This document shows, in pieces, positions 2,848 to 60,598 of a DNA stretch of 64,000 bases (position 1 is its first letter; every line of letters begins with the position of its first letter). Where the stretch lies: NCBI GenBank assembly GCA_051880395.1, contig JBJENW010000108.1, positions 3,677 to 67,676 on the forward strand, written 5' to 3'. The notes beneath the pieces were generated by a model, which did not search any database, was not told the origin of the DNA, and saw only the letters and a program-made list of their open reading frames with translations. The position numbers and the translations under genes were made by a program. The DNA is from Lachnospiraceae bacterium. Lineage in GTDB: Bacteria > Bacillota > Clostridia > Lachnospirales > Lachnospiraceae.

Positions 2848-4110
2848 ATGAAAGAAGAAACACGCCATCATCTCCGGCATGATCTGCGCCGGCTTATCGT
2901 TTCAATTAAATGGATTATTTATGCCGTTTTTTCCGGTGTAATTGTTGGTTTAGTCGGCACTTTATTTTTTTATTGTATGTCAGCCGCTACCGAACTGCGG
3001 AAAGAAAATCCCTGGCTGATTCTAATGCTTCCGGGCGCTGGTATTTTGATTGTCAGTATTTACAAAGTATTACACGATGAAAAAAGTACTGGCACAAATC
3101 TGGTATTATCTGCCATTCATTCCGGTGAAAATCTGCCGCTTCGAATGGCTCCCTCCATTTTCATTTCCACTGTGATCACGCATTTATTCGGAGGTTCCGC
3201 AGGTCGGGAAGGCGCTGCGCTTCAGCTAGGCGGCAGTATCGGCGCCGCACTCGGAAAGTGGTTTAAGTTCGACCAAAAGGATCAGCACGTCATGATCATG
3301 TGTGGGATGAGCGCTGCCTTTTCTGCACTGTTTGGCACTCCTATGGCCGCTGCTATTTTTTCTATGGAAGTTGTCAGCGTAGGGATTATGTATTATGTTG
3401 CACTGGTTCCCTGTGTCATTTCCGCTCTGGTCGCACATGCTGTAGCCTCAACCTTTCACATTATCCCAGAGATGTTTCCTCTAAAAAATCTGCCTCCGTT
3501 TTCTATCACAAATGCAATCCGTATTTCCTTTCTTGCGATTGCCTGTGCCGGTGTCAGTATTATATTTTGTATTCTTTTACATACCGTCACGGACCTATAT
3601 CACAAGTTTTTTGAAGATTCCTATCTTCGCATTTTTGTAGGCGGCTGTCTCGTTTTAATGCTGACGTTTCTCGTCGGCTCACAAGATTACAACGGTGCCG
3701 GCATGGAGATCATTGCTTCTAGTGTTGCGAAGGAACAGGCACATCCTCTGGCATTTTTATTAAAAATAATTTTTACAGCTCTGACCCTTGGTGCCGGATA
3801 TAAAGGCGGTGAAATCGTACCTTCCTTTTTTGTCGGCGCCACATTCGGCTGTGTTTTCGGAAAACTGATCGGATTATCTCCAGCCTTGTGTGCCGCCGTC
3901 GGTATGAGTTCCGTCTTCTGTGGTGTGACAAACTGCCCGATCACCTCCCTCTTGATCAGTTTTGAACTGTTTGGATATTCCGAAATGCCATTTTTCCTTC
4001 TCTCCATTGCACTGAGCTACATGCTTTCCGGCTATTACGGATTATATGCTTCCCAAAAGATCATATATTCCAAATACAAAACCGAATACATTAACCGAAA
4101 AACACATTAA
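2848..4110 (+). CDS. CLC-family anion channel/antiporter, short form without CBS domains (possibly CLC-F-like)
   Basis: 420-aa polytopic ORF with GREGAALQLGG (gating Glu motif), GTPMAAAIF and GGEIVPSFFVGA. GTNLVL replaces the canonical GSGIP. Confidence 0.8.
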   Translation: MKEETRHHLRHDLRRLIVSIKWIIYAVFSGVIVGLVGTLFFYCMSAATELRKENPWLILMLPGAGILIVSIYKVLHDEKSTGTNLVLSAIHSGENLPLRMAPSIFISTVITHLFGGSAGREGAALQLGGSIGAALGKWFKFDQKDQHVMIMCGMSAAFSALFGTPMAAAIFSMEVVSVGIMYYVALVPCVISALVAHAVASTFHIIPEMFPLKNLPPFSITNAIRISFLAIACAGVSIIFCILLHTVTDLYHKFFEDSYLRIFVGGCLVLMLTFLVGSQDYNGAGMEIIASSVAKEQAHPLAFLLKIIFTALTLGAGYKGGEIVPSFFVGATFGCVFGKLIGLSPALCAAVGMSSVFCGVTNCPITSLLISFELFGYSEMPFFLLSIALSYMLSGYYGLYASQKIIYSKYKTEYINRKTH

Positions 4111-4137
4111 ATTTCTATTTATACTACTAATTCCCAG

Positions 4138-4490
4138 GCGGACGTTTCCGGGATTTGGACAGACGCAGGTTACGGGACGGCAGCTTTCAGAGGGACCAGA
4201 CAAAAATGCAGTCAAGTTCGCGACGGGCCAATCTGCGATGCTTTATTTTTGCTGTTTTCCGAAGGTCGTACAGTCTGCACAAAGATGTACGCCAGAGCAA
4301 GACTCAAAGTCGGATTCTTTCTCTGGCGTACACCTTTGCACAGCCAGTCCGCCAATCGGCAAAACAGCAAAGGCATCGCAGATTGGCCCGTCGGAACTTA
4401 CTAGCATTTCTGTCAAGGTCCCTCTGAAAGCTGCCGTCCCGTAACCTGCGTCTGTCCAAATCCCGGAAACTGTGTATCGGAACCGAGAGG
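4138..4490. repeat. long hairpin-forming intergenic repeat, copy A
   Basis: The element starts with GCGGACGTTTCCGGGA and ends with TCCCGGAAACTGTGTATCGGAACCGAGAGG. The arm GGACAGACGCAGGTTACGGGACGGCAGCTTTCAGAGGGACC pairs perfectly with its reverse complement about 250 nt downstream. The core is shared with copies B and C. Confidence 0.85.
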
Positions 4491-4766
4491 TTATATTTTT
4501 TGAAAATGAAAAGTATAAATCTTACATGCAGAATATCGTTTCGATCACTTTTCATATACTGACAGATCTCAGCCGCATAACCGCAGGATTTATCTGTATA
4601 AAAAATATGCGAGACCTTATGCAGTTCGTAAAATTTGTGATGAATTTTGAATACATTACGTTTTCTTAAGAAACATATTTTAATCTTTTGCAACTGATTA
4701 TTGGAAACGAGAGGTTAAAATCTGTTTCGTTTGCACCAGAAAGTTGTGGCCATAGAAAATTCACTG

Positions 4767-5122
4767 TCTTTCGGTTCCAATACACAGTTTCCGGGATTCG
4801 GCGGGGAGATTCGCACTGGGGATGGCTGGTTCAAAAGTGGCTTTGACAGAAATGTTAGTGAGCTCGGGCGGGTAAAATTGCGATGCCTTTGCTGTCTTGC
4901 CGTAAGGCGGAAAGGCTGTGCGGATTTGTACGCCAGAGAAAGAATCCGCTTTTGAGTCTTACTCTGGCGTACAAATCCGTGCAGACTGTCCGACATACGG
5001 AAGACAGCAAAAATAAAGCATCGCAATTTTGCCCGTCCGAACTCGACTTCATTTCTGTCTAGCCACTTTTGAACCAGCCATCCCCAGTGCAAATCTCCCC
5101 GCCGAATCCCGGAAACGTCCGC
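4767..5122. repeat. long hairpin-forming intergenic repeat, copy B (inverted relative to A)
   Basis: The element starts with CTTTCGGTTCCAATACACAGTTTCCGGGA and ends with TCCCGGAAACGTCCGC. Its outer stem CGGCGGGGAGATTCGCACTGGGGATGGCTGGTTCAAAAGTGGC is self-complementary but unrelated in sequence to the stem of A. Confidence 0.85.
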
Positions 5123-5161
5123 ATAGAAACTAATAGGACAAACAGAAAGTTTGTGTTCAAT

Positions 5162-5202
5162 AAGAAAACCCCCCGCAAGCGGGTAAACCCGCTTGCAGGG
5201 GG
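5162..5202 (-). terminator. intrinsic terminator of the rnf operon
   Basis: A GC-rich hairpin CCCCCGCAAGCGGGT/ACCCGCTTGCAGGGGG is followed on the minus strand by TTTTCTT, 20 nt after the rnfB stop. Confidence 0.8.
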
Positions 5203-5222
5203 TATAAAAAGAAACACTCTGC

Positions 5223-6014
5223 TTATAAAATGATCTTTTTCGGACATTTTTCTGCGCAGACACCACATCCGGTACATTTGTCCTGATCGATGTAAGCCAC
5301 ATTGTCCACGACATGAACCGCATCGTGCTCACAGTTCTTTTCGCACAAATGACAGCCAATACAACCAACGGAACATGCTTTCATGACGTCTTTACCCTTG
5401 TCCTTCGAACTGCACTGTACCGCATGTTTTGCATCATATGGTACTAATTCGATCAAACCTTTTGGACAGGTTGCCACACATTTTCCGCAGGCTTTACAAG
5501 CCTCTTTGTCCACTTTTGCGATACCATCCACGATATGAATGGCATCAAACGGGCACGCTTTCACGCAGCTTCCCATTCCTAAACAGCCATAATTACAGGA
5601 TTTCGGACCACCGTTTGGCACAAATGCCATTGCAGAACACTCTTCCACTCCGGTATATGCATAGTCCTGGTTTGCTTTCTCGCAGTTTCCGGCACATTTT
5701 ACAAATGCAACCATCCGTTTGCTCTCACCGGCAGATACGCCCATGATCTCGCCAACTTTTTCTCCGACAGCAGCGCCACCGACCGGACACTGATTGACTG
5801 GCGCTTCGCCTTTCACGATTGCAGCAGCCAGACCGGAACATCCGGCATATCCGCAACCACCACAGTTATTTCCCGGGAGTACCTCTAATATTGCTTCTTC
5901 TCTCGGATCCACTTCTACTTTTAATTTTTCTCCGGCAATACCAAGGAAAAATCCGATCAGTATGCCTGTGCCACCTACGATGACGGCGGCAATGATAATA
6001 CTTGTAATATCCAT
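5223..6014 (-). CDS. rnfB: Rnf electron-transport complex subunit B (polyferredoxin)
   Basis: N-terminal TM helix, a CGGCGYAGC motif and several CxxCxxCxxxCP 4Fe-4S motifs. It is the last gene of the rnfCDGEAB order. Confidence 0.9.
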   Translation of the reverse strand: MDITSIIIAAVIVGGTGILIGFFLGIAGEKLKVEVDPREEAILEVLPGNNCGGCGYAGCSGLAAAIVKGEAPVNQCPVGGAAVGEKVGEIMGVSAGESKRMVAFVKCAGNCEKANQDYAYTGVEECSAMAFVPNGGPKSCNYGCLGMGSCVKACPFDAIHIVDGIAKVDKEACKACGKCVATCPKGLIELVPYDAKHAVQCSSKDKGKDVMKACSVGCIGCHLCEKNCEHDAVHVVDNVAYIDQDKCTGCGVCAEKCPKKIIL

Positions 6015-6026
6015 CTGCCTGCCCTC

Positions 6027-6602
6027 CTAAATGACGCCTGAGAATCCGAAAAATGCAATCGCCATCAAACCTGCTGTTACAAGCACGATCGGTGAACCTT
6101 TGAATGCACCCGGTACGTCGTTGTATTCAATCTTCTCTCTGATACCTGCCATAATGACAATCGCGATGGTAAAGCCGACTGCTGTCGCAAATCCGTTTAC
6201 CACGCTCTGTAAAATGTTATAATTTTTTGTCACATTCTTTAACGCAACACCAAGTACTGCACAGTTTGTCGTGATCAGCGGAAGATACACTCCCAAAGAC
6301 TGATACAGTGCCGGCATTGACTTTTTCAAAAACATTTCCACAAACTGCACCAATGCTGCAATAACCAAGATAAAGACGATGGTCTGCAGATATTCAAAGC
6401 CCGACGGTGCCAAAATAAATTTGTAAATCAATCCCGTTACAAAGGAGGACAATGTGATAACGAAAACAATCGCTCCTCCCATACCTGCCGCCGTCTCTAC
6501 TTTCTTAGAAACACCAAGAAACGGACATAAGCCTAAAAACTGGCTCAAAACGACATTATTTACAATAGCGGAACTTACTAAAATAATCAGTAATTCTTTC
6601 AT
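6027..6602 (-). CDS. rnfA: Rnf complex subunit A
   Basis: 191-aa polytopic protein with an RnfA/NqrE-like sequence (LGLCPFLGVS) in the expected operon position. Confidence 0.9.
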   Translation of the reverse strand: MKELLIILVSSAIVNNVVLSQFLGLCPFLGVSKKVETAAGMGGAIVFVITLSSFVTGLIYKFILAPSGFEYLQTIVFILVIAALVQFVEMFLKKSMPALYQSLGVYLPLITTNCAVLGVALKNVTKNYNILQSVVNGFATAVGFTIAIVIMAGIREKIEYNDVPGAFKGSPIVLVTAGLMAIAFFGFSGVI

Positions 6603-11947: not shown

Positions 11948-11970
11948 CTTTCCGACAATCGGCTTTTTTT
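11926..11970. terminator. bidirectional intrinsic terminator (exonuclease gene / cheR)
   Basis: The hairpin AGCCGATTGTCGG...CCGACAATCGGCT is flanked by an A-run and a T-run, between convergent genes. Confidence 0.8.
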
Positions 11971-12745
11971 ATATTTTTTCAAAAAAGAAAGACTGTTTCC
12001 TTGCATAATTCAACTCTTTATAATTTATGATCTGCTCTGTGCTACCGATGAAAAGAATTCCTCCCGGTTTCAAAGCTTCATTGAATTTGCGATAAATCTC
12101 TTCTTTTGCTTCTTCTGTAAAGTAAATCAATACATTCCGGCATACAATCAGATTGCAGCCTTGCGGGTACGGATCTTTTAACAAATTATGTTCTTTAAAA
12201 TCCACACGCGACTTAATCTCATTTGAAATTTGATAAGAAGGTCCTACTTTTGTAAAATACTTCTTTTTCAAATCCTCTGGCACAGCTGCGATACTTTTCT
12301 CATTGTACAGACCTACACGTGCTTTTTCCAGCACTTGCTTATCAATATCCGTTGCAGTGATTCGAATCTGATTCAACGGCATAAACCGTGATAATGCCAT
12401 CACCAGTGAATATGGTTCATCTCCTGTTGAACAGGCAGCACTCCAAATCTTCAGGTTTTTGCCAAATTTCTGAATCAGTTCCGGGAATACCTGCTGTTCC
12501 AAAAGTTTCCATTGTTCCGGATTTCGATAAAACTCCGAAACATTGATCGTAAGAAAATTGACAAACTGATCAAACTTTTGTTTGTCTTTTTTGATCATCT
12601 GCACATACGCATCGTAAGAATTTGCACCATTTTTTGTAAGCAGCGTATCAATTCGCCGACGCATCTGTTTCTCCTTATAAGAATTCAGATCAATTTTCGT
12701 CAATGCGAATACATCTTTTTTGAATTTTTCATACCCTTCAAACAT
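11969..12745 (-). CDS. cheR: chemotaxis protein methyltransferase CheR
   Basis: 258 aa with EFYRNPEQW (the CheR TxFFR-type motif) and the SAM-binding segment IWSAACSTGDEPYS. Confidence 0.88.
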   Translation of the reverse strand: MFEGYEKFKKDVFALTKIDLNSYKEKQMRRRIDTLLTKNGANSYDAYVQMIKKDKQKFDQFVNFLTINVSEFYRNPEQWKLLEQQVFPELIQKFGKNLKIWSAACSTGDEPYSLVMALSRFMPLNQIRITATDIDKQVLEKARVGLYNEKSIAAVPEDLKKKYFTKVGPSYQISNEIKSRVDFKEHNLLKDPYPQGCNLIVCRNVLIYFTEEAKEEIYRKFNEALKPGGILFIGSTEQIINYKELNYARKQSFFFEKI

Positions 12746-18591: not shown

Positions 18592-18801
18592 ATGGATTCT
18601 CCTTTTTAAAATTTTTTATATTTAAATTATACTCAACCATTACATTTTTTTCAACATCTACCGATACATATAGTAAGATTATAAATATACTAGAATGCGT
18701 ATACATTTTATCAAAGATTTGTTTTTTTATTGAAAACTGTCGCATTTTGGTGTACTATGTATATATATTATGGAATTTTCTATGAGTGGAGGAGAGGCTA
18801 C

Positions 18802-19179
18802 ATGAATCTTGAAAATATTTCAATTTTAATTGGTGATGATTCGATTCTTGCACGCAAACAATTAAAGGATGTACTAACTTCTTTTGGTGCAACACATTTT
18901 CTAGAAGGAGCGAACGGTGAGGAGGTTATTGAACTTTACAAGGCCAACAAACCGAATCTGGTTTTTCTTGATATTGTTATGCCTGTGAAAGACGGAATTA
19001 ATGCTGTCCGCGAAATCATCAACGTAAACCCGGATGCCGATATTGTTATGGTATCTTCTGTCGGAACGCAGGATCAATTGAAAGCTGCTATTAATGCCGG
19101 TGCGCATGATTTTATTCAGAAACCTTTAGATGCTGATCAGGTGCACGCAATCTTAAAAGTTCGATACGAAGGGAGATAG
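18802..19179 (+). CDS. cheY: CheY-like single-domain response regulator
   Basis: 125 aa from MNLENISILIGDDS, behind a GGAGGAGAGG RBS. The receiver residues are present: DD, FLDIVMP (phospho-Asp), SSVG and QKP. Confidence 0.85.
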   Translation: MNLENISILIGDDSILARKQLKDVLTSFGATHFLEGANGEEVIELYKANKPNLVFLDIVMPVKDGINAVREIINVNPDADIVMVSSVGTQDQLKAAINAGAHDFIQKPLDADQVHAILKVRYEGR

Positions 19180-19182
19180 AAT

Positions 19183-20064
19183 ATGTATACACAATTTTTT
19201 GGTAATTATCTCTTGCACCGTGGAGCGATCACACCAGAGCAGCTGATGGATGCAATGAAAGAAGAATCTTCTTCCCACATCAAGCTCGGTACTTTAGCGA
19301 TTCATTCCGGCTACATGACTGCAAGTGAAGTGGAAAACATTATTATTATGCAGACTCATCAGGATAAACGCTTTGGTGATCTTGCTGTGGAACAAGGATA
19401 TCTGACAAACGATCAGGTACGCGAATTGATTGAAACGCAGAATCCAAATTATTTATTACTTGGACAGATTTTAATCGAAAAGGGCTATCTGACACATTCT
19501 GAATTTGAAACCTTACTTTTGGATTATCAGTCAGAAAATGAAATTACTGAGCAGGATATTTCATCGAATGAGTTGGAACACATCCATACGCTGTTACGCA
19601 ACTTCTTGAAAACATTAGATTTTCAGGATCAGGATTATATCATTCAATATTTATCCCTGCTGTTTAATAATCTTATCCGATTTATCGGAGACGATTTTTC
19701 ACCGCTTGATCCGATTCCTTGCGAAGAGATTCCGATAACATACTGTATTTCTCAGCGAATCGGTGGTTCCATCCAGCTTCTCTCCGGATTAGAATTGGAC
19801 GAACCAACCGTCATCGCGTTCGCATCTCGCTATGTTGGTGACACCTTCACAGAATTCGATGAGTATGTAAAGGCTTCTGTTGAAGATTTCTTAAATTTAC
19901 ATAACGGACTGTTCAATGTCAATATGTCCAACAACAACTCGATCGAATTGTCTTTAGATCCACCGATGCGGATTGAAGATCCGATTTTCTCCTTAGAGGG
20001 AAAATCCTATCTCATTCCAATTGCTTATCCGTTTGGTATTCTTAATTTCATTTTGGCATTTTAA
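19183..20064 (+). CDS. protein with four tandem MshEN-type 24-residue motifs and a CheX-like C-terminal domain
   Basis: Residues 5-115 are four repeats of about 24 aa separated by 5-aa spacers. The pattern is xxGxx(L/A)(L/I/V)xxG(Y/A)(I/L/M)xxxx(L/V/F)xxx(I/L/M)xxQ. The C-terminal ASVEDFLNLHNG resembles the CheC/CheX E/D-x2-N-x3-G active-site helix. The gene starts 4 nt after cheY. Confidence 0.55.
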   Translation: MYTQFFGNYLLHRGAITPEQLMDAMKEESSSHIKLGTLAIHSGYMTASEVENIIIMQTHQDKRFGDLAVEQGYLTNDQVRELIETQNPNYLLLGQILIEKGYLTHSEFETLLLDYQSENEITEQDISSNELEHIHTLLRNFLKTLDFQDQDYIIQYLSLLFNNLIRFIGDDFSPLDPIPCEEIPITYCISQRIGGSIQLLSGLELDEPTVIAFASRYVGDTFTEFDEYVKASVEDFLNLHNGLFNVNMSNNNSIELSLDPPMRIEDPIFSLEGKSYLIPIAYPFGILNFILAF

Positions 20065-21749: not shown

Positions 21750-21947
21750 GCGGACGTTTCGCAACACGCCGGGCATCTCTGCGAAAAACACGGCTCCTGT
21801 TCAGGTAAGCTAACTCTTAAGATTCTCTAAGACACTCAGGATCGCCTTCGTGCCTAAGAGAATCTAAAGAGTGGATCTCACCTGCACCCGCCGAAACGTT
21901 TTTTCGCAGAGATGCCCGGCGTGTTGCGAAACTGTGTACTGGAAACG
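21750..21947. repeat. hairpin repeat, copy D (same ends as A, different interior)
   Basis: Ends GCGGACGTTTC...GAAACTGTGTACTGGAAACG. The 33-bp outer stem GTTTCGCAACACGCCGGGCATCTCTGCGAAAAA pairs perfectly with TTTTTCGCAGAGATGCCCGGCGTGTTGCGAAAC. Confidence 0.8.
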
Positions 21948-21975
21948 GAAAAGATCTCAACCAATCGGTTTCATT

Positions 21976-22062
21976 ACACAGTTTTCGGTATCCGGCAGGA
22001 GGCAAGGACCGGAAACTGTGTATTGGAAACGCTAGGTTGAAATATCTTAACCTCCCGTTTCC
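21976..22062. repeat. minimal copies of the same repeat ends (two short hairpins)
   Basis: First hairpin: ACACAGTTTTCGGT...ACCGGAAACTGTGTATTGGAAACG. Second hairpin: GGAAACGCTAGGTT...AACCTCCCGTTTCC. Confidence 0.6.
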
Positions 22063-22066
22063 GATA

Positions 22067-22402
22067 GACAGTTTCCGAAATTTGGCTGGGTGGGCAAGGC
22101 GGGGCGGCTGCTTTCAGAAGGGCTTTGACAGAAATGTTAGTGAGTTTGGGTGGACAAATCTGCGATGCCTTTGCTGTTTTGCCGAGAGGCGTACAAGCTG
22201 TGCGTAGGTGTATGCGGGAGAAAGAGTCCGCTTCTGAGTCTTTCTCCCACATACACCTGCGTGCAGCTTGTACGACATTCGGAAAACTGCAAAAATAAAG
22301 CATCGCAGATTTGCCCGCCCAAACTCGACTTCATTTCTGTCTAGCCCTTCTGAAAGCAGCCGCCCCGCCTTGCCCATCCAGCCAAATTTCGGAAACGTCC
22401 GC
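22067..22402. repeat. long hairpin-forming intergenic repeat, copy C (same orientation and core as B)
   Basis: GACAGTTTCCGAAATTTGGCTGGGTGGGCAAGGCGGGGCGGCTGCTTTCAGAAGGGC pairs with its complement and ends GGAAACGTCCGC. The core TTTGACAGAAATGTTAGTGAG...TGCGATGCCTTTGCTGT is shared with B. Confidence 0.85.
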
Positions 22403-22413
22403 ATAGAAAACAC

Positions 22414-23613
22414 TCAAATCCCCTGACAAAGCTGATTCATGGATAATACGATTCCCATGATGTCGGCCGAACATTTTTCCATGTTTTGGGACAGATAATT
22501 CACTTGAGAACGTGCTTTTTGAATCAAGGACTGGTTATAGTCCAAATGCTCCTGCAATTTATGCTGACGGTTGATGAGATTCTGCCGCTCTTTTTCTATC
22601 TCTTCGTCATCTAACAAAATATCGATCTGATCAAACCACAGTTTCTCATCTGTCAGATTCAACTCATGTAAAATCCTGCTTAATTTTTCCTCATAATATT
22701 CTAAATCATCGCTGGTTTCCATATACTTTTTACGCTGTTTCACACTGTCCATATACTGTTCCCATTCGTAAAGCAGCTCCTGACCACTTTTTACATGATA
22801 TTTTGCACAGGCATAATCAACCGCATTTGTTACATTCACATACTTCACTTTCATCTTATTTTCGCGCTCAATCGCATAATTCCGGTTGACGTTGATTTTA
22901 TGCAGTTCGGTAATATTGTACTGACGTTTCATAAAAATGCCAAATGTTAACATTGCGACAACAAAGATCAGAAGGAAAAATGCATTTTCACAATGCAGAC
23001 GAAATCCCTCCTTCAAAACAAATAGAAGCACGATCCCTACTCCACAGACACCACACAGACAATACAATAATTGCTGCAGCGTGGTCTGTTCTTCTGTCAG
23101 CTGTTCTTGTCGTATTGCCAACTGCTCTTTTTCGCTCGACAAATATTGCATATCTCGTTTCACGGCTGCCTGATATTTCTCGTTTGCCTGTAGGCGACGA
23201 ATCTCATCCGGCATTTCCTCTTCCTTCTGCTGCATCTGAAGAAAAATCGCATCTTCCATCCGATGGCCTGCTTTTCGGTAATTTTCTCTTGCATTTGTCA
23301 GTTTGCGCACATTTTGAACCGTCTCTTTGAGTTCCGCACTTTTTTCTTCCGGAAGTGCTTTCAGCTTTTCAATATCAGCCAGATAATCGCAAACCTCATG
23401 ATATTCTTTTCGACCTTCCTCTAACTCTTTTGTATTTTCCATGATCGTTTCACACTGAGAAACGATATAGTGTTCAATTTCCTCTCGATTACTTTTCGGT
23501 TTTGACACCCGCTCCACTGGCGGTAATTCCGGTTCTTCCTCCTCGCCAACCGAATATTGCTGAATCGGCTTTGACTGCTTTTCATTCTTTTTTTTCCAAT
23601 GAAACCACTTCAT
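22414..23613 (-). CDS. coiled-coil membrane protein, unknown function (4th gene of orphan operon)
   Basis: 399 aa. It has a charged, heptad-like N-terminal half, two hydrophobic helices (LLYCLCGVCGVGIVLLFVL and FFLLIFVVAMLTFGIFM) and a second coiled-coil-like half. A GGGGGAG RBS precedes it. Confidence 0.6.
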   Translation of the reverse strand: MKWFHWKKKNEKQSKPIQQYSVGEEEEPELPPVERVSKPKSNREEIEHYIVSQCETIMENTKELEEGRKEYHEVCDYLADIEKLKALPEEKSAELKETVQNVRKLTNARENYRKAGHRMEDAIFLQMQQKEEEMPDEIRRLQANEKYQAAVKRDMQYLSSEKEQLAIRQEQLTEEQTTLQQLLYCLCGVCGVGIVLLFVLKEGFRLHCENAFFLLIFVVAMLTFGIFMKRQYNITELHKINVNRNYAIERENKMKVKYVNVTNAVDYACAKYHVKSGQELLYEWEQYMDSVKQRKKYMETSDDLEYYEEKLSRILHELNLTDEKLWFDQIDILLDDEEIEKERQNLINRQHKLQEHLDYNQSLIQKARSQVNYLSQNMEKCSADIMGIVLSMNQLCQGI

Positions 23614-23637
23614 AAAAACTCCCCCTTATTTTCTTCA

Positions 23638-24462
23638 TCAGAAGACACATTTTTGCATATATTCATTTTTCCAGGCCGCCATGATCGTGTCCGCCTGTTC
23701 ATAAAACGCATTGATCTCTCCTTTTTCACGCAGTTCATACAACTGCTGCATCTGTGCATCTTCGACTAGTTGTTCCCTACTATTCTGATCCTTCAAAAAC
23801 GCTTCGATCTGATCCGAGGCATACTTTGCTTCTTCCATAAGACTTCGTGTCTTTTCTTCCCCATATGCCAAAAAACAGGATGCCCAGTACTCCTGCCCGA
23901 TCTGACTTGTATCTTGATAAGTGGAAGCCATTTCAAAACAATGCATCGCATCCTCAAATAAAAATATTCCGGCATAAGCAGTGCCGAGATTATTCCAAAC
24001 CTGACTTTGAAACACTGGTTTTTCCTCTTTTGTTTCAGAAAGCAGCAGTATTTTCCGATATTCCTGAATGGCAGCCACATATAAGTGTTTTTTTAGCATA
24101 CGGTCCGCACGCATTTTTTTTCGTTCTACCGGATTTTTCTTTTGAAACTCCTCAATCGTACTACATATCATAGAAATTTCCGAAGGTGTATGATATCCGC
24201 TCGCCTGTAAAAGACTTTCCATAAACAGCGCCACGTTTTTTCTTCGCCAATACAATTCCATTCGCTGCGCCAGGGAAGGCATTGCCAGCTCTTTTGTCAC
24301 CCATTCCAGAAATGACTGCCGCATAAAGGACGGCTGCGCCAGATCAATATTTTCCTGAATAAAATAGCTGATCTCCTCCAGGTTATAAAGATGCAATGAC
24401 AGTTCTTCTAACTCATACGGTGTTTGTGCCTGATTACGCCGGCATAAAATCACACTGCTCAT
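23638..24462 (-). CDS. helical / TPR-like protein, unknown function (3rd gene)
   Basis: 274 aa. The segment WNNLGTAYAGIFLFEDAMHCFEMAS is TPR-like. A strong AAGGGGGG RBS precedes it, with a 17-nt gap to the upstream gene. Confidence 0.55.
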   Translation of the reverse strand: MSSVILCRRNQAQTPYELEELSLHLYNLEEISYFIQENIDLAQPSFMRQSFLEWVTKELAMPSLAQRMELYWRRKNVALFMESLLQASGYHTPSEISMICSTIEEFQKKNPVERKKMRADRMLKKHLYVAAIQEYRKILLLSETKEEKPVFQSQVWNNLGTAYAGIFLFEDAMHCFEMASTYQDTSQIGQEYWASCFLAYGEEKTRSLMEEAKYASDQIEAFLKDQNSREQLVEDAQMQQLYELREKGEINAFYEQADTIMAAWKNEYMQKCVF

Positions 24463-24479
24463 TTCACATTCCCCCCTTT

Positions 24480-25712
24480 TTATAAACGAATCACATATTC
24501 CCAGGTTTGCCCGGTTGCAGCAAAAAATTCTCCGAATCCCTGATCTGTTAAAGACACCTTCACTTCCCGATCAGAAAGAGGTTCTGCTTTCACATGGAGC
24601 CGCGTCGTCCTTGGAGGCCGTTCGGGGAGTTCCGTTAACTGCAATGTCTGAATCTGTGCATTTCGACTTTGTGGCAATTGCAGATAAAAATCAATTGCTG
24701 ATGATTTATCAAGGATAATATCACATTCCCCTTTTGTCTCATACCAGTTTTCGCCGGCTGAGATCAGCGTAAACATACCATCCCCCTGTGCCCCCCGCAC
24801 TTTCATACTGACATTGACCTTCATCTCATTTTCGCCCATGTAGACAAACGGCCATTGCTGATTTGAATCCCGAATTGCTGCAAAATAACAGGCTCCTATG
24901 GAAAACAGATTTTTTCCCATAAAGGCTTTTCGATTCTTACACAAAATCTGCAGTGATTGCCGCATCCATCCTCCTTCAAACAAATCTCCTGTCAGATAGA
25001 CTGCTGAAACGATTCGCCCGGAAAGCTGTTGATTTGCCATTTCTGCAAATGCAGAATCTTTTTGTTCCCCAAGCGCTCCGAGTTTTTCTTCCGTAACCGT
25101 CACAAGCTGTGGACTGGTTTTCTGACTTCGTTCCAGACACCATGCAAAGATTTGATTCTCTTTTTCCCGAAACATCAAAACATCATGCAGCCACAGTTCC
25201 CGCTTCTGATTCAGCGTATATACATAAAAACTTTCTTTATAATTTTGAATATGCCAGTTTGCTGAGGAGATTCCTGCTTTTTTCAACGCCCATCCCAGTT
25301 TGCGCACCAGTTCTTTATTGACTTCCTCCATTGTAAGAACCAGCCGATCTACGCGAAACGGTGTTCCATTTTTTTCCGGAAGTGCCAGAACTTTCCGAAA
25401 AAACAACGCCAGAAGTTCAAACGCTTCGTAGCTTTCTTTGTCCCAGACGATTTTTTCTTCAGACATTGTTTTTTGTATTAAGTGATCTGCAAAACAAGGT
25501 TCGTTGAGCTGCATCTGCTTTTTTGCTTCATCCCCGTATAACCAATAGCTGGAATTTTTCTTATGTCCGATCACCAGAGGGATCTGATAGACATTTCTTC
25601 CTGCGACAGCACTCACCGTTTCCGGTTTTTCACTGTCTGCACGCATGAAACTGAGCATCACGCTTGTGTCACTGATATCCATGCCCGCATAACATCTTAT
25701 ACCTTCTATCAT
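24480..25712 (-). CDS. Hsp70/actin-fold ATPase-like protein without a substrate-binding domain (2nd gene)
   Basis: 410 aa. GMDISDTSVMLSF resembles Hsp70 phosphate-1 (GIDLGTTNS). RLVLTMEEVNKELVRKLGWALKKAGIS resembles the VITVPAYF...AG segment. VYLTGDLFEGGWMRQSL resembles the VLLVGGxTRxP adenosine motif. These are weak motif-level matches only. Confidence 0.5.
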   Translation of the reverse strand: MIEGIRCYAGMDISDTSVMLSFMRADSEKPETVSAVAGRNVYQIPLVIGHKKNSSYWLYGDEAKKQMQLNEPCFADHLIQKTMSEEKIVWDKESYEAFELLALFFRKVLALPEKNGTPFRVDRLVLTMEEVNKELVRKLGWALKKAGISSANWHIQNYKESFYVYTLNQKRELWLHDVLMFREKENQIFAWCLERSQKTSPQLVTVTEEKLGALGEQKDSAFAEMANQQLSGRIVSAVYLTGDLFEGGWMRQSLQILCKNRKAFMGKNLFSIGACYFAAIRDSNQQWPFVYMGENEMKVNVSMKVRGAQGDGMFTLISAGENWYETKGECDIILDKSSAIDFYLQLPQSRNAQIQTLQLTELPERPPRTTRLHVKAEPLSDREVKVSLTDQGFGEFFAATGQTWEYVIRL

Positions 25713-25729
25713 ATACTTCTCCCCCTTTT

Positions 25730-28700
25730 CTACAATATCAGGAACTGGTTGTTCACATTTTTCTCTCGACTTTTGTATTTTTCCATCAGACCAAGCATTG
25801 TTTCACTGTCTTCGAGTGCTCTCGATACTGCCATTCCGTTTAAAAGATCATATCGACTGTCATCATTTTCATTATAACCATCCGCATTCTGAATCACATT
25901 GCTTCCAGTAATATCCCATATACCATCGATTTTTTCCTGTACATAGTATTGAATTTTTTCCCCAAAGAACAACACAAAACTTTTGACATAAATCCCTTCA
26001 TACATTTCCTGCATTCGCTCTTTCTTGAAATCAACTTGCAGATCATATTCGGGTTGATAGCAGAGCATCACTTCTTTTCCCGGATCTGTGCGATACTCAA
26101 TAAATATTTTATCATAAAGATAAAATTCCTGCTGAATTTCATGAGGAAACTGTTTATAAAAACGGAAATACAAACCTTTCTGTATGCATTGTCCCAACAA
26201 GTCTTCGACAATTTCGCGTTCCGCCTGTGACAGACTCTGCTTCTGCGACAGCCATTGCAGTAATGCCAGCTCTCCCATTTGATTGATTGTATGTTCCTGA
26301 TACTGATGTAATAATTCTTCAAAAACAGACTCCGAAACAACCATCTTTTTCACAAAACTGCAATATGAATAGTAAGAAACATATGCTGCACAGATTTCAC
26401 TGCGACCACCGCTTTTGCAATAACTCTCATAAATCTCATCCGTATTTTCCACAAATACCGCCGTGGAAAGCATCTGAACCAGGAGACGTTCTTCCAGCTC
26501 TGCGGTATCCACCAGGAAATTCTTCGCCGTGCGAAAGAGTGCCGCCATTTTTGCGGTCGGTCCCTCATAATATTTGACCAGATAGTTCAGCAAAACATCA
26601 TTATATTTTCCTGCACGATACGCCGCCTCACTCAGATACAGTAGATTTTTTTCCCACTCATATGCGTGCTCTATGATCAAATAACTGCACAAAGAAAGAA
26701 GTCGTCCACTCTGCAATTGATCTACACTTCCACACGGAATCTGTTCGTATGCAGCTTCATACTCATGCAGTTCCACTAAAATCTCCACTGCCATCCTGTG
26801 TGCATCTCCATCGAGCAGTGAAAGATTTTCCTTTTTCAGATAAGGTGCTACCCGCTCAAAATCCCCCGCCTCATAACAATACCGAACTAACTCACAAATA
26901 AGCGTTTTTCGATATTCTTCGCGGATTTCTTTTGCTTTGATCAGATGCATCAGTAAATCCATTTTATCATTTTGCATCGCTTTTTCGACCGGACTACTCG
27001 AAAAATAATGCAGCAGATACGGAATCTTTTCCGGTGCCCATGAAATACATTTGCGTATATAATGTGATGGATGCATCAGTTTTTCCAGCTCGCAATCCTC
27101 TAAACCTGTCAAAAGATTTCCATATATATCTTCTAAAAGGATCACATAATTCGCAGAATAAACCTGCACATAAGCGATATGATTTACAAGTGGTACAACC
27201 TGCACTTTTTTCCACTCCTGCTGCGCTACTATGACGTAACGAATATCTGGTCGTTTGCAGACAAACTGACAAGTATAAAACAGTTCCGATAATTTCTTTG
27301 TAATTTCCGGATTAACCATTCCCGCTTCTAAAGCAGTATCATAAATCAGTGCCAGATTTGCATCCATATGATGTTGTTCCATCTGGCGCAATGCAAAATC
27401 TTCTATATTCTGCATATAATGTTCCAGCACATCCGGCTGCCTGTTACGATTTTTAATGATATTTACATACAATATCGCTTTTCGCGCTACCGGAAGCGTA
27501 TTTGTATTATATTGGAAATAAATCTGCACCTCTTTCGGCAATGGGTCCGTTCGCTGACTATCAATGGAAAGCAGATAGGATTCATATAGATTCGTGATAC
27601 GAAAATCTTTTTCGATTCCCATCGCATACCAATGCTGATACTGTACTCCGTATTTCGAAAAGCGAGTCAGATAACGGCAGATTATCTCTGCTAACTCCTC
27701 TGTCTGATATTGTTCATAACAACCGCACAAAATCTGATAGTTTTTTTCATCAAACGAACGCTCCATGGACAGTAATTTCAAAAAACGCTCCATCATCGCA
27801 TGTGTGAGCCCCTTTCTCTGAAGCCCCCACAATAAAATCCGTTTCTCATATGTTCCCAGTTTTTTCATCAGATTCGGTTCTTCCTGATAAAGATAAAATG
27901 CCTCCATATAGAAAAATGGACTGGCATGTCCGCTGCAAATGTGTTTTTCCAGTGCCTGTTGGCGTACCTTGTGATCGGTGAAATAATCTTCTCGTAAAAA
28001 CAAGAGCACCCAGAATAAAATCTCCGGTTTTCCTCTCTTTTGATAGATGACCTCTATCTCTTCTGTAAGCTTATTTACATAAGATGCTTCTCGCTCTATC
28101 AATGTCAAAAGATACAGATAATACGCCCATTCTGTCGTATCTGTCTCTTTAAAATGTTCGCGCTTAAATGCATCTAAAATCCATTCTGCTTCCTGTCGCT
28201 GTTTATTCAAAAGATACGCCTGTGCTTTCATCAAGCGATAAATATCCTGTTTTGTCAATCGAAACAATTGATCTAATAATTCATTTGACTTCTGACACCA
28301 TTCTCCCGTCACGATTTTCTGAAATCGATAATCCATATACAGTTTTGTTAATTCTGCCTGATATTTTTGTTTTTCCCAAATCAGCTTTTTCTGTTGAGGA
28401 TGTCGACTCGTCTGCTCCACCAAAAGTTCCACCTGCTCAATTTGATTCGTTCCTGCAATCGTAATGCGAATGAAATTTTTTCCATGATGCAGCTTTTGGG
28501 GATCGATCACATAAGGAATCTGCAGTACATCTCCCACAAAATCCTCTGTTTCAAACAATTGTTTACTAAAACAGATTCCCGCAGAATCTGCAGTGACCGA
28601 AAGACTGAGATACCCCCAGCTGTCTTTTTCAACCTGTAAAAGCTCCTGACTCGGTTCCTTGATATCTTGAAAATTACGCGTAGAATCCAATACACGAAAT

Positions 28701-29275
28701 GCGATCCGCTTTTTCTTTTTCAAACCACACAGATACTCTTCTACCGCCTGGCTGCCATTTGAATCCCGACAAATTTCCCGATATAATAATTTTGCCCGGT
28801 CATCTTCATTATGTAACAACTCCCGAAATGCCGATGAATGAAAAAACTGTTCGGCTTCTTTTGGCGCTGTCTGCGCCAGCCGTACAAAATCATGCATATG
28901 GCGCATCAACCCTGTACTTGTCTGTTGATAATTTCTTGTCACATATGCAACAAAAGAAAGGCTATATTCCCCACCGTTGCAAATAATTGAAAAAACACCT
29001 TTTTGAATATTTCCTTCCTCTAATCCTTCGCTATGAAATTTATATTTTACTCTGACCTGTGTACCGCTAAAACGGGCGATCTTACATTCCATTCTCCCAT
29101 TTGAAGAAAAAATCTGTCCCTCAATCGGAACACGATTCAGGCTATTGATCTGAAATTCTCCCGTGCAGCACTGTCCCAATGGAACATTCAATTCTATTTT
29201 TTCCACTGATAACTCTACAACCGGTCTGTCATAATTAAATTGTCCTCTTGCTAGTTCCTCTATCCGTCTCTGCAA
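25730..29275 (-). CDS. 1181-aa protein of unknown function (1st gene): N-terminal beta-rich module, long helical-repeat body, beta-rich C-terminus
   Basis: A single uninterrupted ORF with a TTG start at 29273-29275 behind a GGTGG RBS. I saw no catalytic motif, signal peptide or TM segment. From memory, homologues may be annotated as DUF5717 with a neighbouring DUF5716. I could not verify this here. Confidence 0.6.
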   Translation of the reverse strand: MQRRIEELARGQFNYDRPVVELSVEKIELNVPLGQCCTGEFQINSLNRVPIEGQIFSSNGRMECKIARFSGTQVRVKYKFHSEGLEEGNIQKGVFSIICNGGEYSLSFVAYVTRNYQQTSTGLMRHMHDFVRLAQTAPKEAEQFFHSSAFRELLHNEDDRAKLLYREICRDSNGSQAVEEYLCGLKKKKRIAFRVLDSTRNFQDIKEPSQELLQVEKDSWGYLSLSVTADSAGICFSKQLFETEDFVGDVLQIPYVIDPQKLHHGKNFIRITIAGTNQIEQVELLVEQTSRHPQQKKLIWEKQKYQAELTKLYMDYRFQKIVTGEWCQKSNELLDQLFRLTKQDIYRLMKAQAYLLNKQRQEAEWILDAFKREHFKETDTTEWAYYLYLLTLIEREASYVNKLTEEIEVIYQKRGKPEILFWVLLFLREDYFTDHKVRQQALEKHICSGHASPFFYMEAFYLYQEEPNLMKKLGTYEKRILLWGLQRKGLTHAMMERFLKLLSMERSFDEKNYQILCGCYEQYQTEELAEIICRYLTRFSKYGVQYQHWYAMGIEKDFRITNLYESYLLSIDSQRTDPLPKEVQIYFQYNTNTLPVARKAILYVNIIKNRNRQPDVLEHYMQNIEDFALRQMEQHHMDANLALIYDTALEAGMVNPEITKKLSELFYTCQFVCKRPDIRYVIVAQQEWKKVQVVPLVNHIAYVQVYSANYVILLEDIYGNLLTGLEDCELEKLMHPSHYIRKCISWAPEKIPYLLHYFSSSPVEKAMQNDKMDLLMHLIKAKEIREEYRKTLICELVRYCYEAGDFERVAPYLKKENLSLLDGDAHRMAVEILVELHEYEAAYEQIPCGSVDQLQSGRLLSLCSYLIIEHAYEWEKNLLYLSEAAYRAGKYNDVLLNYLVKYYEGPTAKMAALFRTAKNFLVDTAELEERLLVQMLSTAVFVENTDEIYESYCKSGGRSEICAAYVSYYSYCSFVKKMVVSESVFEELLHQYQEHTINQMGELALLQWLSQKQSLSQAEREIVEDLLGQCIQKGLYFRFYKQFPHEIQQEFYLYDKIFIEYRTDPGKEVMLCYQPEYDLQVDFKKERMQEMYEGIYVKSFVLFFGEKIQYYVQEKIDGIWDITGSNVIQNADGYNENDDSRYDLLNGMAVSRALEDSETMLGLMEKYKSREKNVNNQFLIL

Positions 29276-29412
29276 GTCGCCACCTGCTTTATCATTTATT
29301 ATATAGCGATTCAGCTCGTTTCTGAATCGCTATATGAATCGGTTTCATTATACCCTATTTTCAGCCACTATGCAACAAGTGAAACCTTTTCTCGTGCAGG
29401 TTCTCTCTTTTT

Positions 29413-31992
<2,580 letters not shown>

Positions 31993-32041: not shown

Positions 32042-32926
32042 TTATACGGCAAACTGGTGCAAAAGTTCACGCGCCGCAGCGGATAACGGTGTATTCGCAT
32101 CAGTTACAATGGCAATCTGACGTTTCGGAATCGGCTGCTCAAACTGAAGCCGAAACAGACTTTTGTCCGCAATTTTTTCTTTTGCGAAATCCGCCATGAC
32201 ACAGGCTACTCCGAGCCCACGCTGCGCAAACTGAATCAGCATATCACTGGTAGCAAGTTCAAATTCCGGCAAAAGCGTAATACGCTGCTTCGCCAAAAAT
32301 GCATCAACGGAACTGCGCGTTGACGTATTTGGCTCCAGACAGATGATCGGATATTCCTGCAGCATCTGATACGTCAGCAGTTTTCCTTTTAACTGTTCGA
32401 ACTTTCTGCCCGCCACAAAAATATCCTCCACTTCCCGAACAGGCTGAATCTTAAAATGATGCTTCTCTTGAACCGGCGTACTGATCACACCGAAATCAAT
32501 CCTCCCCTGCTGTAGATGATGCAGCGTTTCCGGTGTCGGTGCATTTGTCACCTTGATTTTAATATTCGGATGCTCCTCATGGAACCGCTCTAAATATTCT
32601 AACAAATAAAACCGCAGTGTCATATCACTGGCACCGATGCAGATTTCCCCCTCTTCTAGATCACGCATTTCCCGCAACTTTTTCTCGCCTGACAAAATAT
32701 ACTCATACCCACGCTGCACATATGTGTAAAACATTTCTCCTTCCGCAGTAAAGCGAACCCCCTTGGAAGTACGCACAAACAATGTCACCTGCAGTGCCTC
32801 CTCCAAATGACGAATCGCCTGACTTACGGCAGGCTGGGAAATCGATAATGCTTCCGCCGCCAGTGTAATACTCTTTTTTTGCCCTACATAATAAAAAATT
32901 TTGTAATATTCTAAATTGATATCCAT
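32042..32926 (-). CDS. LysR-family transcriptional regulator
   Basis: HTH segment SITLAAEALSISQPAVSQAIRHLEE, 294 aa, typical LysR substrate-binding half. Confidence 0.88.
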   Translation of the reverse strand: MDINLEYYKIFYYVGQKKSITLAAEALSISQPAVSQAIRHLEEALQVTLFVRTSKGVRFTAEGEMFYTYVQRGYEYILSGEKKLREMRDLEEGEICIGASDMTLRFYLLEYLERFHEEHPNIKIKVTNAPTPETLHHLQQGRIDFGVISTPVQEKHHFKIQPVREVEDIFVAGRKFEQLKGKLLTYQMLQEYPIICLEPNTSTRSSVDAFLAKQRITLLPEFELATSDMLIQFAQRGLGVACVMADFAKEKIADKSLFRLQFEQPIPKRQIAIVTDANTPLSAAARELLHQFAV

Positions 32927-60100: not shown

Positions 60101-60404
60101 TACGAACCGTAAATGTGATATCACCAGAAATCGTCTTTCCATTCGTGATCAATTTTTTTGCACCAACCACAGTGATATCATCTGTTGCTGCGATATCAGC
60201 AGTCAGCTCTACCTCTGTGATCTTCGGATTCGTCAGTGCCGCCTGTAACTCTGCAAAATTCCCCACTTTCGTCGATGTTTCTGCCTGTGTACTGATTGTT
60301 GTCTCTTCTGCCCAGACTGGCAACGCACTGCCCGGCACGCTCCCCACTGCAATTGCCGATGCCATCATCAAGGCAAACAGTTTACAAATCTTTTTGTTCT
60401 TCAT
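57168..60404 (-). CDS. large secreted surface protein: unassigned N-terminal domain, Big_2-type Ig domains, Pro/Ser/Thr linker, DGT-repeat module, basic Ig-like C-terminus
   Basis: Signal peptide [25 protein letters not shown]. Several Big_2-like units are present (e.g. [21 protein letters not shown]). There is a [12 protein letters not shown] tandem array and about 16 repeats of roughly 11 aa containing DGT. I saw no LPXTG motif. Confidence 0.8.
58461..58815 (-). repeat. in-frame tandem DNA repeat encoding the (P-S-T/V-E-P-S) linker
   Basis: Near-identical blocks of about 90 nt recur (GGTACGACACTTGGTTCCGTGCTTGGCTCGGTACT(C/T)GGTGCAACACTTGGTTCTACACTCGGTGTACTTGG). They translate as [26 protein letters not shown]. 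Confidence 0.85.
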
Positions 60405-60555
60405 AATTACATTCCCCTTTCATTCTGCTAGGACTAAGCTGGTTTACTAGTAGGTAAAATTTTCCTCTGTATATAACATCGAGCTTTTTTGCGAAAACCT
60501 TATAGTTATTTTTAATTTTTTTCAAAAAAAAAGCATATTTATAATTATGACAACT

Positions 60556-60592
60556 AAAAACAGGTAGGCAAGCGAATTTTCGCATGTCTACC
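60556..60592 (-). terminator. terminator after the RloB-like gene
   Basis: On the minus strand, GGTAGACATGCGAA-AA-TTCGCTTGCCTACC is followed by TGTTTTT, directly after the stop at 60599. Confidence 0.6.
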
Positions 60593-60598
60593 CATTCA

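Follow-up and report, generated by a model that had tools for sequence, protein, structure and literature searches.

A Lachnospiraceae operon with DUF5716 and DUF5717 genes, tentatively read as a membrane-tethered scaffold around an Hsp70-derived clamp

We analysed a 64,000-nt stretch of DNA from a Lachnospiraceae bacterium (assembly GCA_051880395.1, contig JBJENW010000108.1), referred to below as the window, and examined four co-directional open reading frames (ORFs) on its minus strand at 22414-29275, named genes 1-4 (see table). The reading that we prefer, and hold tentatively, is that they encode a scaffold without enzymatic activity, tethered to the membrane and organised about a peptide clamp derived from Hsp70, in a vertically inherited module specific to Lachnospiraceae. 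A preliminary description of this DNA, made from the sequence alone, had judged that the set resembles an assembly rather than a metabolic pathway, a judgement that our results support, and had suggested the names DUF5716 and DUF5717, with function unassigned, for its relatives. Pfam searches confirm these names. Gene 1 matches DUF5717_N over residues 1-872 (E=7.5e-247) and the C-terminal DUF5717 family over residues 875-1178 (E=9e-91), and gene 2 matches DUF5716_C (E=1.6e-101); the bit scores of 821.9, 304.6 and 339.6 compare with gathering cut-offs of 25, 25 and 34.7. The window proteins are thus full-length members of families for which Pfam gives no function. No confident profile match to a characterised system was found for any of the four proteins.

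The AlphaFold2 (AF2) model of gene 2 (pLDDT 83.8, pTM 0.71) retrieved DnaK, Hsc70 and BiP in Foldseek at E=2e-20 with probability 1.0, bearing out the Hsp70/actin fold that had been proposed. The matches include lidless DnaK, Hsc70(1-554) and Ssz1 of the ribosome-associated complex (RAC) core 6sr6 (E ~1e-15). The preliminary description had denied gene 2 a substrate-binding domain (SBD), which proved wrong: the nucleotide-binding domain (NBD) fold is followed by residues ~290-410, which form an SBD-beta whose eight strands lie within residues 299-409 of the model, and the Foldseek alignment with two-domain lidless DnaK constructs spans ~500 columns. Only the helical lid (SBD-alpha) is missing. 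The chain stops with the last beta strand at residue 410, and unfused relatives are all ~400-460 aa long. At the sequence level, a profile of 30 gene 2 orthologues searched against PDB sequences gave DnaK as best match, with a weak E=0.13 that is co-linear at both ends. Here HMMER aligned gene 2 residues 6-109 with DnaK 4-100 and residues 356-394 with DnaK 430-468 ('LTGIPPAPRG..IEVTFDIDANG'). The Pfam DUF5716 model covers just the C-terminal two-thirds of the protein. The Pfam HSP70, MreB and FtsA models matched none of 30 gene 2 members at E up to 10, a single-sequence phmmer search with gene 2 against PDB sequences found no match, and hhalign of the DUF5716 alignment against one DnaK sequence was uninformative in global and local mode.

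The nucleotide site of this Hsp70-type fold is degenerate. In the HMMER alignment the catalytic Lys70 of DnaK falls on a near-invariant Leu79 of the gene 2 family. We aligned 149 family members and DnaK with MAFFT: Asp8 of DnaK is kept in 126 of the 149 and Gly341 in all 149, and the position of Asp194 is acidic in 117 members and Arg in the window protein. At phosphate-1 (DLGTT) the GTT positions are occupied by D, N or E, and at phosphate-2 (DLGGGT) the GGGT positions are unconserved, so that neither loop holds a conserved glycine or threonine. The DnaK block 225-240, the start of subdomain IIB and the part of it at which the alignment was inspected, falls in a gap for the window protein and for at least half of the 149 members; assignment of secondary structure in the model by DSSP leaves lobe II with only IIA-type elements. 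The protein ends in WKYTMxM and has no EEVD tail. As the preliminary description had noted, no J-protein lies nearby: neither a DnaJ domain nor GrpE occurs in the four proteins or the flanking genes, and the HPD tripeptide is absent from the four proteins. Its further claims, that gene 2 keeps weak versions of the phosphate and adenosine motifs and is nucleotide-driven, did not survive, given the Lys70 to Leu change, the loss of the GTT and GGGT loops, the deletion of IIB and the lack of a J-domain or GrpE partner. Judged from alignments and the model, gene 2 most likely descends from an Hsp70 and has lost ATPase activity.

Gene 3 had been described as TPR-like, and a profile of 32 orthologues agrees, matching consensus TPR proteins over residues ~128-195 with E=3e-22 to 1e-8. 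The single sequence stays below threshold for TPR_1 in Pfam (18.9 bits vs a cut-off of 27.8). The protein is laid out as a conserved N-terminal domain (residues 1-100), for which we detected no relative, a TPR pair or triplet at ~113-195, and a variable helical tail ending WKxEY. By this profile evidence gene 3 is a predicted TPR protein. Gene fusions tie it to gene 2. Among the 150 best representatives of the family, 6 are fusions of 684-745 aa in which DUF5716 is followed at the C-terminus by a full gene 3 homologue, the latter recognised by BLASTP (E=2e-29) and by hhalign (probability 99.2% over 267 columns). In two loci, L082 (Butyrivibrio) and L083, DUF5717 lies on one side of the fused gene and a homologue of gene 4 on the other (hmmsearch E=3e-75 and 5e-85, respectively); in a third, L084, genes 1-4 are four separate genes. 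We propose that gene 3 is an obligate TPR partner of gene 2.

Gene 1 encodes the giant of the set, and its relatives (n=142) are all ~1180 aa long. Its AF2 model (pLDDT 86.8, pTM 0.57) begins with two Ig-like domains. In Foldseek this N-terminal tandem matched ciliary central-pair ASH proteins at E=1.6e-7, the matches ranging to 1e-5, and further matches were the SPD-2 domain of CEP192 and P. gingivalis 2qsv. The PapD-like domain of HYDIN (2e6j) superimposed with TMt 0.72 and rmsd 3.5. The ASH/PapD-like assignment holds at fold level only, and no sequence family was matched. Two alpha-solenoids follow, which resemble TPR/HAT-type scaffolds (Integrator, the SKI complex (Ski3-containing), Paf1C, NatA (Naa15-containing) and OGT) at E = 1e-5 to 1e-3 with low TM-scores, an assignment to fold class only. 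The beta insert between the solenoids gave no specific structural match. Near-invariant residues in the C-terminus are F1103, G1105, Y1110, Y1111 and E1114 (aromatic, acidic and others), and most invariant residues of gene 1 as a whole are aromatic or structural. As the preliminary description had it, gene 1 shows no catalytic signature, transmembrane (TM) segment or signal peptide; genes 1-3 all lack a TM segment (maximum KD19 < 1.2). A single-sequence phmmer search with gene 1 against PDB sequences found no match, its profile gave nothing meaningful against the same set, and a Foldseek search of viral structures (BFVD) returned generic Ig/BACON domain matches only. The predicted structure supports gene 1 as a large cytoplasmic, non-catalytic scaffold of ASH/PapD-like Ig domains and TPR-like solenoids.

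Gene 4 was correctly described as a two-TM membrane protein. It has no Pfam family, its profile found nothing in PDB, and its relatives (n=148) are all named 'hypothetical' and nearly all lack a Pfam domain. For the coiled-coil character proposed earlier, the one signal is a set of sub-threshold matches to SMC-like models (noise in NCBIfam, which gave nothing else for the operon) and leucine zippers. In 40 relatives the TM hairpin gave sub-threshold matches to DUF2207_C (23 of 40, best E=3e-5), SLATT_1 (5 of 40, best E=0.004), Phage_holin_3_6 (weak, 6 of 40) and CyanoTRADDas_TM (weak, 3 of 40), and these may reflect the generic composition of TM hairpins. The earlier picture of charged regions on both sides of the anchor needs correction: the two soluble parts are both expected on the same side of the membrane, since a loop of only ~10 residues separates the TM helices. 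Because gene 4 has no signal peptide and carries a 180-aa N-terminal domain, we infer that the soluble parts face the cytoplasm. The extreme N-terminus is a short linear motif with the family consensus MGLFRRKKKPK, followed by a linker that varies in length and sequence. A hydrophobic pair and then a basic run are found there in 35 of 40 relatives, and also in the distant L082 and L084.

The four genes form one operon. They are separated by 17, 17 and 24 nt, and G-rich runs resembling ribosome-binding sites (RBSs) precede the starts of genes 1-4, in order GCAGGTGG, AAGGGGGAG, AAGGGGGG and AAGGGGGAG; coordinates and sequence alike agree with the earlier description. In an alignment with 43 homologues gene 1 matches from residue 1 onward, which lends credit to its TTG start. 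A sigma-A-type promoter precedes gene 1. The pattern TTG[ACT][ACT][ACT]-N16-18-TA[ACT]A[AT]T occurs 5' of gene 1 in 43 of 68 relatives vs 2.7 expected from shuffles, mostly in the form TTGCAa-N17-TATAAT and often with AAATnGTT at the end of the spacer. A generic promoter scan missed the window site because TTGCAT agrees with TTGACA at just 3 of 6 positions. Motifs of the sigma-D, -E, -K and -F/G types were not enriched 5' of gene 1 in the same 68 relatives (sigE/K/F/G types, 0-1 of 68). We regard expression of the operon in vegetative cells as probable. The 5' untranslated region (UTR) folds, between the -10 box and the RBS, into a perfect hairpin of -27.1 kcal/mol (z=-5.8 vs shuffles); its conservation in relatives is not obvious, and an Rfam scan of the whole window returned no family. 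A second, weak helix may form here between the RBS and the TTG start.

The preliminary description had called the operon an orphan. It is a widespread family module. We scanned one genome per GTDB species by pattern and found gene 2 relatives in 414 species representatives, with a single module copy per locus, and the best 80 of the 414 loci (L001-L080) were taken for synteny. Their labels are Agathobacter, Roseburia, Lachnobacterium, Eubacterium plexicaudatum, unnamed Lachnospiraceae and a few records of metagenome-assembled genomes otherwise labelled. Genes 1, 2, 3 and 4 were found at 79, 80, 80 and 76 of the 80 loci, in constant order and strand wherever the contig allows, with median gaps of 12, 9 and 2 nt. 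Metagenome loci retrieved independently via gene 4 tell the same: genes 2 and 3 lie directly upstream in 67 of 69, and all three other genes in 57 of 59 testable loci. Synteny is thus conserved in relatives. Two apparent exceptions are probable chimeras or rearrangements. One (L101) has a 570-aa ORF (3141-4853) that joins a GH2 N-terminal fragment in-frame to gene 3 residues 35-268. The other (L130) carries gene 4 alone (4458-6053), with a SipL/SPOCS sporulation gene beside it on the other strand, on a low-coverage contig with an atypical ORF pattern. A search with a hidden Markov model of 1.84 billion cluster representatives (50% identity) found at least 1,678 members of the gene 2 family, 643 of them at E <= 1e-30, and the family is therefore much larger than a word-indexed search had suggested. 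The few members with organism names are Butyrivibrio or Lachnospiraceae. The invariant core is genes 1, 2 and 3; gene 4 is nearly always there yet dispensable.

Beyond the four genes no neighbour is universal. The flanks are clade-specific (P-type ATPase, aminotransferase, gltX, uvrD, cotJABC), and the aminotransferase/gltX/uvrD flanks are kept even where gene 1 identity is just 24%; L081 has them too. Where the neighbouring GltX is ~85% identical, gene 1 is 53%, gene 2 61%, gene 3 49% and gene 4 43% identical, and the divergence of the operon proteins correlates positively with that of GltX (rho 0.28-0.53). These results fit a module that is inherited vertically and evolves at a high rate. 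In the window the operon lies in core chromosome, with genes for the Rnf complex, CheR, IspH-S1, Cmk, citrate synthase, ThrC, CysD/N-like proteins, GltB/D and subunits of a type II topoisomerase. None of 72,556 plasmids carries a gene 2 relative. A phage collection gave five gene 2 matches, all of them virome scaffolds named 'UNVERIFIED: Bacteriophage sp.'. Two of the five, MT835486.1 (L085) and MT835719.1 (L086) from a human faecal virome, hold the whole four-gene operon amid MgsA, a split ValS, an FeFe hydrogenase and an amidase, in flanks that are 88-93% identical to Roseburia chromosome neighbours. Carriage by phage was rejected for these two inspected records (H1 and H2), which look like bacterial DNA in a virome assembly, with housekeeping flanks.

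The closest parallel that we know is Ssz1 of the eukaryotic RAC, a non-hydrolysing Hsp70 whose SBD holds a Zuotin segment as a pseudo-substrate (PMC7083937). Both Ssz1 and gene 2 are non-canonical Hsp70s with a shortened SBD, and Ssz1 serves as a stable structural subunit, as gene 2 may; 6sr6 is itself among the Foldseek matches. They differ in that Ssz1 keeps IIB and binds ATP, whereas IIB is deleted from gene 2, and in that Ssz1 has a J-protein partner and is ribosome-bound, whereas here there is no J-domain and the partners are a TPR protein, an Ig/solenoid scaffold and a TM protein. The resemblance would be a functional analogy and not membership.

On this analogy we suggest the following mechanism. 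The assembly would sit at the cytoplasmic face of the membrane and act by binding, not catalysis. Gene 1 would be its platform, presenting two ASH/PapD-like Ig domains and ~700 residues of TPR-like solenoid. Gene 2, which keeps the two-lobed NBD shell and the peptide-binding sandwich, would not cycle ATP and would keep a linear peptide of a partner permanently clamped, much as Ssz1 holds its Zuotin segment. Gene 3 would be bound to gene 2, as it is covalently in the lineages that fuse the two into one polypeptide, and the TM hairpin of gene 4 would tether the assembly to the membrane. The classic Hsp70-binding pattern is a hydrophobic core with flanking basic residues. The N-terminal MGLFRRKKK tail of gene 4 has both and is therefore the obvious candidate, and the best one that we see, for a ligand of the gene 2 SBD-beta. 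As to what such an assembly would do, we lean to a role at the membrane or envelope because the promoter is of sigma-A type, the chromosomal position is stable and no effector enzyme is present. A bolder version of this proposal, of which we are doubtful, is a new kind of cell-biological machine in which an ATP-independent Hsp70 clamp, a TPR partner, an 1181-aa platform and a membrane tether would serve a lineage-specific organising function (cytoskeleton-like, envelope or division-related) in the butyrate-producing Lachnospiraceae that dominate the gut, with no characterised counterpart in any organism.

Several observations weigh against the clamp scaffold. At L081, gene 1 and a gene 2-3 fusion occur with no gene 4 within 18 kb, so a membrane anchor is not universally required. 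The retained Asp8 and the often acidic Asp194 position mean that gene 2 may still bind some nucleotide or metal, and the mapping of DnaK motifs was made at 12-15% identity, where calls on single residues carry uncertainty. The N-terminal motif of gene 4 could instead be an amphipathic or basic tail that binds the membrane. The proposed role in membrane or cell-envelope organisation is a tentative guess. Lastly, all four proteins evolve very fast, a pattern that is also typical of conflict systems.

That pattern leads to a different account, in which the operon is a conflict (anti-phage or abortive-infection) system: gene 1 would sense an invader, the gene 2/3 pair would transduce or threshold the signal, and gene 4 would permeabilise the membrane. 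We consider it unlikely. Besides the fast evolution relative to GltX, it draws on the weak matches of the gene 4 hairpin to two-TM effector or holin-like families (SLATT_1, Phage_holin_3_6, CyanoTRADDas_TM) and on the absence of any visible enzymatic function, which is shared by many sensor-effector systems. It also has a precedent in the NTP-dependent conflict systems of Firmicutes and Actinobacteria, whose gene clusters pair Hsp70 family members, truncated ones included, with TPR- or other repeat-containing and DnaJ-fused partners (Kaur, Burroughs, Iyer & Aravind 2020, PMC7159879). Those systems centre on GAP1-N2/DO-type GTPases and include GrpE and/or DnaJ fusions and FNIII proteins (PMC7159879), whereas the operon has none of these GTPase, GrpE, DnaJ or FNIII components, nor a STAND protein, a nuclease or any other typical partner. 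One locus, L083, adjoins DISARM-like genes: a helicase, an MZB/DUF1998 protein and a PLD-family gene form a trio at 1-2468, ~2 kb upstream of the operon, in a single case. Searches of PADLOC-DB v2, however, gave no matches for genes 1-3 and nothing for gene 4 beyond coiled-coil noise (E >= 0.05). The account is further opposed by the stable syntenic position between housekeeping genes across deep divergence, the conserved sigma-A-type promoter, the single module copy per locus in 414 species representatives, the negative plasmids and the lack of a genuine phage among the inspected carriers. Furthermore, gene 4, the supposed effector, can be missing while the rest is kept, as at L081.

The features of gene 2 could also be turned toward an ATP-driven specialised Hsp70 chaperone machine, with gene 3 as its TPR co-chaperone and genes 1 and 4 as client or targeting factors. 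TPR proteins pair with Hsp70, as in the Hop/CHIP type, and gene 2, like DnaK and Hsc70 with their TPR co-chaperones (Hop, CHIP, Tom70), joins an NBD and an intact-looking SBD-beta to what appears to be a dedicated TPR partner. Asp8, the invariant Gly341 and the mostly acidic Asp194 position would fit an active enzyme. Against this, the equivalent of the catalytic Lys70 is Leu, the phosphate loops lack their glycines or threonines, the window protein has Arg where DnaK has Asp194, and IIB, which binds adenosine and the exchange factor, is deleted; the lid, the EEVD tail, a J-domain, HPD or GrpE in the operon or flanks, and a Pfam HSP70 match are all wanting. A bacterial Hsp70-type gene in an operon with a membrane-anchored partner is known from E. 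coli, where the specialised paralogue HscC, a full-length active ATPase, is encoded with the membrane-anchored J-proteins DjlB and DjlC. That proteobacterial system differs in having J-proteins as partners and no giant scaffold. We regard an ATP-driven machine as distinctly improbable. Least probable of all is a module for sporulation or assembly of the spore envelope in spore-forming Lachnospiraceae, which we think very unlikely. A scaffold with a membrane anchor is a plausible logic for coat morphogenesis; cotJA/cotJB/cotJC-like genes lie immediately downstream in 17-34 of the 80 loci, and on one metagenome contig (L130) gene 4 adjoins the SipL/SPOCS gene. Yet the promoter is sigma-A-like, with sporulation-type (sigE/K/F/G) motifs in 0-1 of 68 relatives, the cotJ adjacency is limited to clades and is seen neither in the window nor at L081-L085, and the SipL contig may be a chimera. 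The family also includes Butyrivibrio, a genus that is not known for sporulation.

The surroundings of the operon hold further features. The DNA that follows gene 4 right after its stop at 22414 consists, for ~640 nt (21756-22396), of consecutive long imperfect palindromes. An element of ~326 nt at 22071-22396 has outer arms of 54 nt that are 98% complementary, with nested inner arms, and one of ~177 nt at 21756-21932 has perfectly complementary 33-nt arms. Further inverted repeats lie between the two, and in several arms the first letters are GTTTC and the last GAAAC. Two mechanical ORFs (109 and 99 aa) fall inside the palindromes, the 109-aa one without a Pfam match. No further copy of the arms exists in the window, and scanning metagenomes for exact matches to the downstream palindrome arm yielded nothing. 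The region could be an element resembling a miniature inverted-repeat transposable element (MITE), a terminator or insulator, or a structured RNA. In relatives, the cotJA-, cotJB- and cotJC-like (Mn-catalase family) genes of L001-L080, recognised by eye from the sequences, lie 50-650 nt downstream of the operon, mostly on the same strand; the window and L081-L085 have none.

Immediately upstream of the operon, at 29413-31968 (minus), an 851-aa GH53 endo-galactanase carries two Listeria-Bacteroides repeats and an FN3 domain and is probably a cell-surface enzyme; a LysR regulator comes next (32042-32926). On the plus strand at 18730-20064, a stand-alone response-regulator receiver (149 aa, TTG start) is followed after 3 nt by a 293-aa protein with a sub-threshold DUF4388-like match only. 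The CheR gene at 11969-12745 suggests a chemotactic organism. At 60001-62474 the GC content drops to 0.348 vs ~0.43 elsewhere, and this region, with an AAA_21/AbiEii-like ATPase gene at 61281-62474 and an unassigned 325-aa ORF following at 62778-63755, may be a small acquired or defence islet.

Table. Coordinates in the window of the four genes, their predicted domains and the regulatory features of the operon.
Feature	Position	Strand	Description	Basis
Gene 1	25730-29275	minus	1181 aa, TTG start; DUF5717	
Gene 2	24480-25712	minus	410 aa; DUF5716	
Gene 3	23638-24462	minus	274 aa; TPR protein	
Gene 4	22414-23613	minus	399 aa; membrane anchor, no Pfam family	
Promoter of operon	29347..29375	minus	sigma-A type; -35 TTGCAT (29375-29370), 17-nt spacer, -10 TATAAT (29352-29347)	read from sequence
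5' UTR hairpin of gene 1	29301..29335	minus	perfect 14-bp hairpin between -10 box and RBS	RNA fold
Gene 1 residues 20-288	28412..29218	minus	two predicted Ig-like beta-sandwiches (20-113, 193-288) with helical insert 127-184 between them	AF2 secondary structure, Foldseek
Gene 1 residues 293-662	27290..28399	minus	first predicted alpha-solenoid, TPR-like helical repeats, ~25 consecutive helices	AF2 model
Gene 1 residues 668-732	27080..27274	minus	small all-beta insert between solenoids, six strands	AF2 model
Gene 1 residues 740-1050	26126..27058	minus	second predicted alpha-solenoid; mostly DUF5717_N, partly DUF5717 C-terminal	AF2, Foldseek, Pfam
Gene 1 residues 1056-1180	25736..26110	minus	C-terminal beta domain (1056-1129) and two terminal helices	AF2
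Gene 2 residues 1-285	24858..25712	minus	Hsp70-type NBD fold, lobes IA/IB/IIA, no subdomain IIB, catalytic motifs degenerate	AF2, Foldseek, HMMER, MAFFT
Gene 2 residues 290-410	24483..24845	minus	eight-stranded beta-sandwich, Hsp70 SBD-beta; protein ends there	AF2, Foldseek, HMMER
Gene 4 residues 1-10	23584..23613	minus	conserved short linear motif, MKWFHWKKKN in the window	alignment of relatives
Gene 4 residues 182-228	22930..23070	minus	TM hairpin (TM1 182-200, loop KEGFRLHCEN, TM2 211-228)	Kyte-Doolittle maxima 2.7, 2.4

A literature search for DUF5716/DUF5717 returned only one unrelated paper, and a search for Hsp70-like proteins in Lachnospiraceae nothing relevant. The relationship of DUF5716 to Hsp70, with degenerate ATPase motifs and neither IIB nor lid, the TPR fusion, the ASH-Ig/solenoid architecture and the four-gene module with its promoter are not recorded in the Pfam entry or in the literature that we searched. 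Were the operon a true conflict system, it would be a new type, missed by current defence catalogues. Read as an Hsp70 without ATPase, IIB and lid but with its peptide-binding sandwich, DUF5716 extends the few known 'pseudo-Hsp70s', of which Ssz1 is one, by a bacterial member, and gene 2 may offer Hsp70 researchers a natural minimal NBD-SBD-beta unit. The fusion and the gene 4 N-terminal motif turn an operon of four proteins of unassigned function into specific, testable hypotheses of interaction, in a family carried by Agathobacter, Roseburia and Butyrivibrio, which in the human and animal gut rank with the most abundant producers of butyrate.

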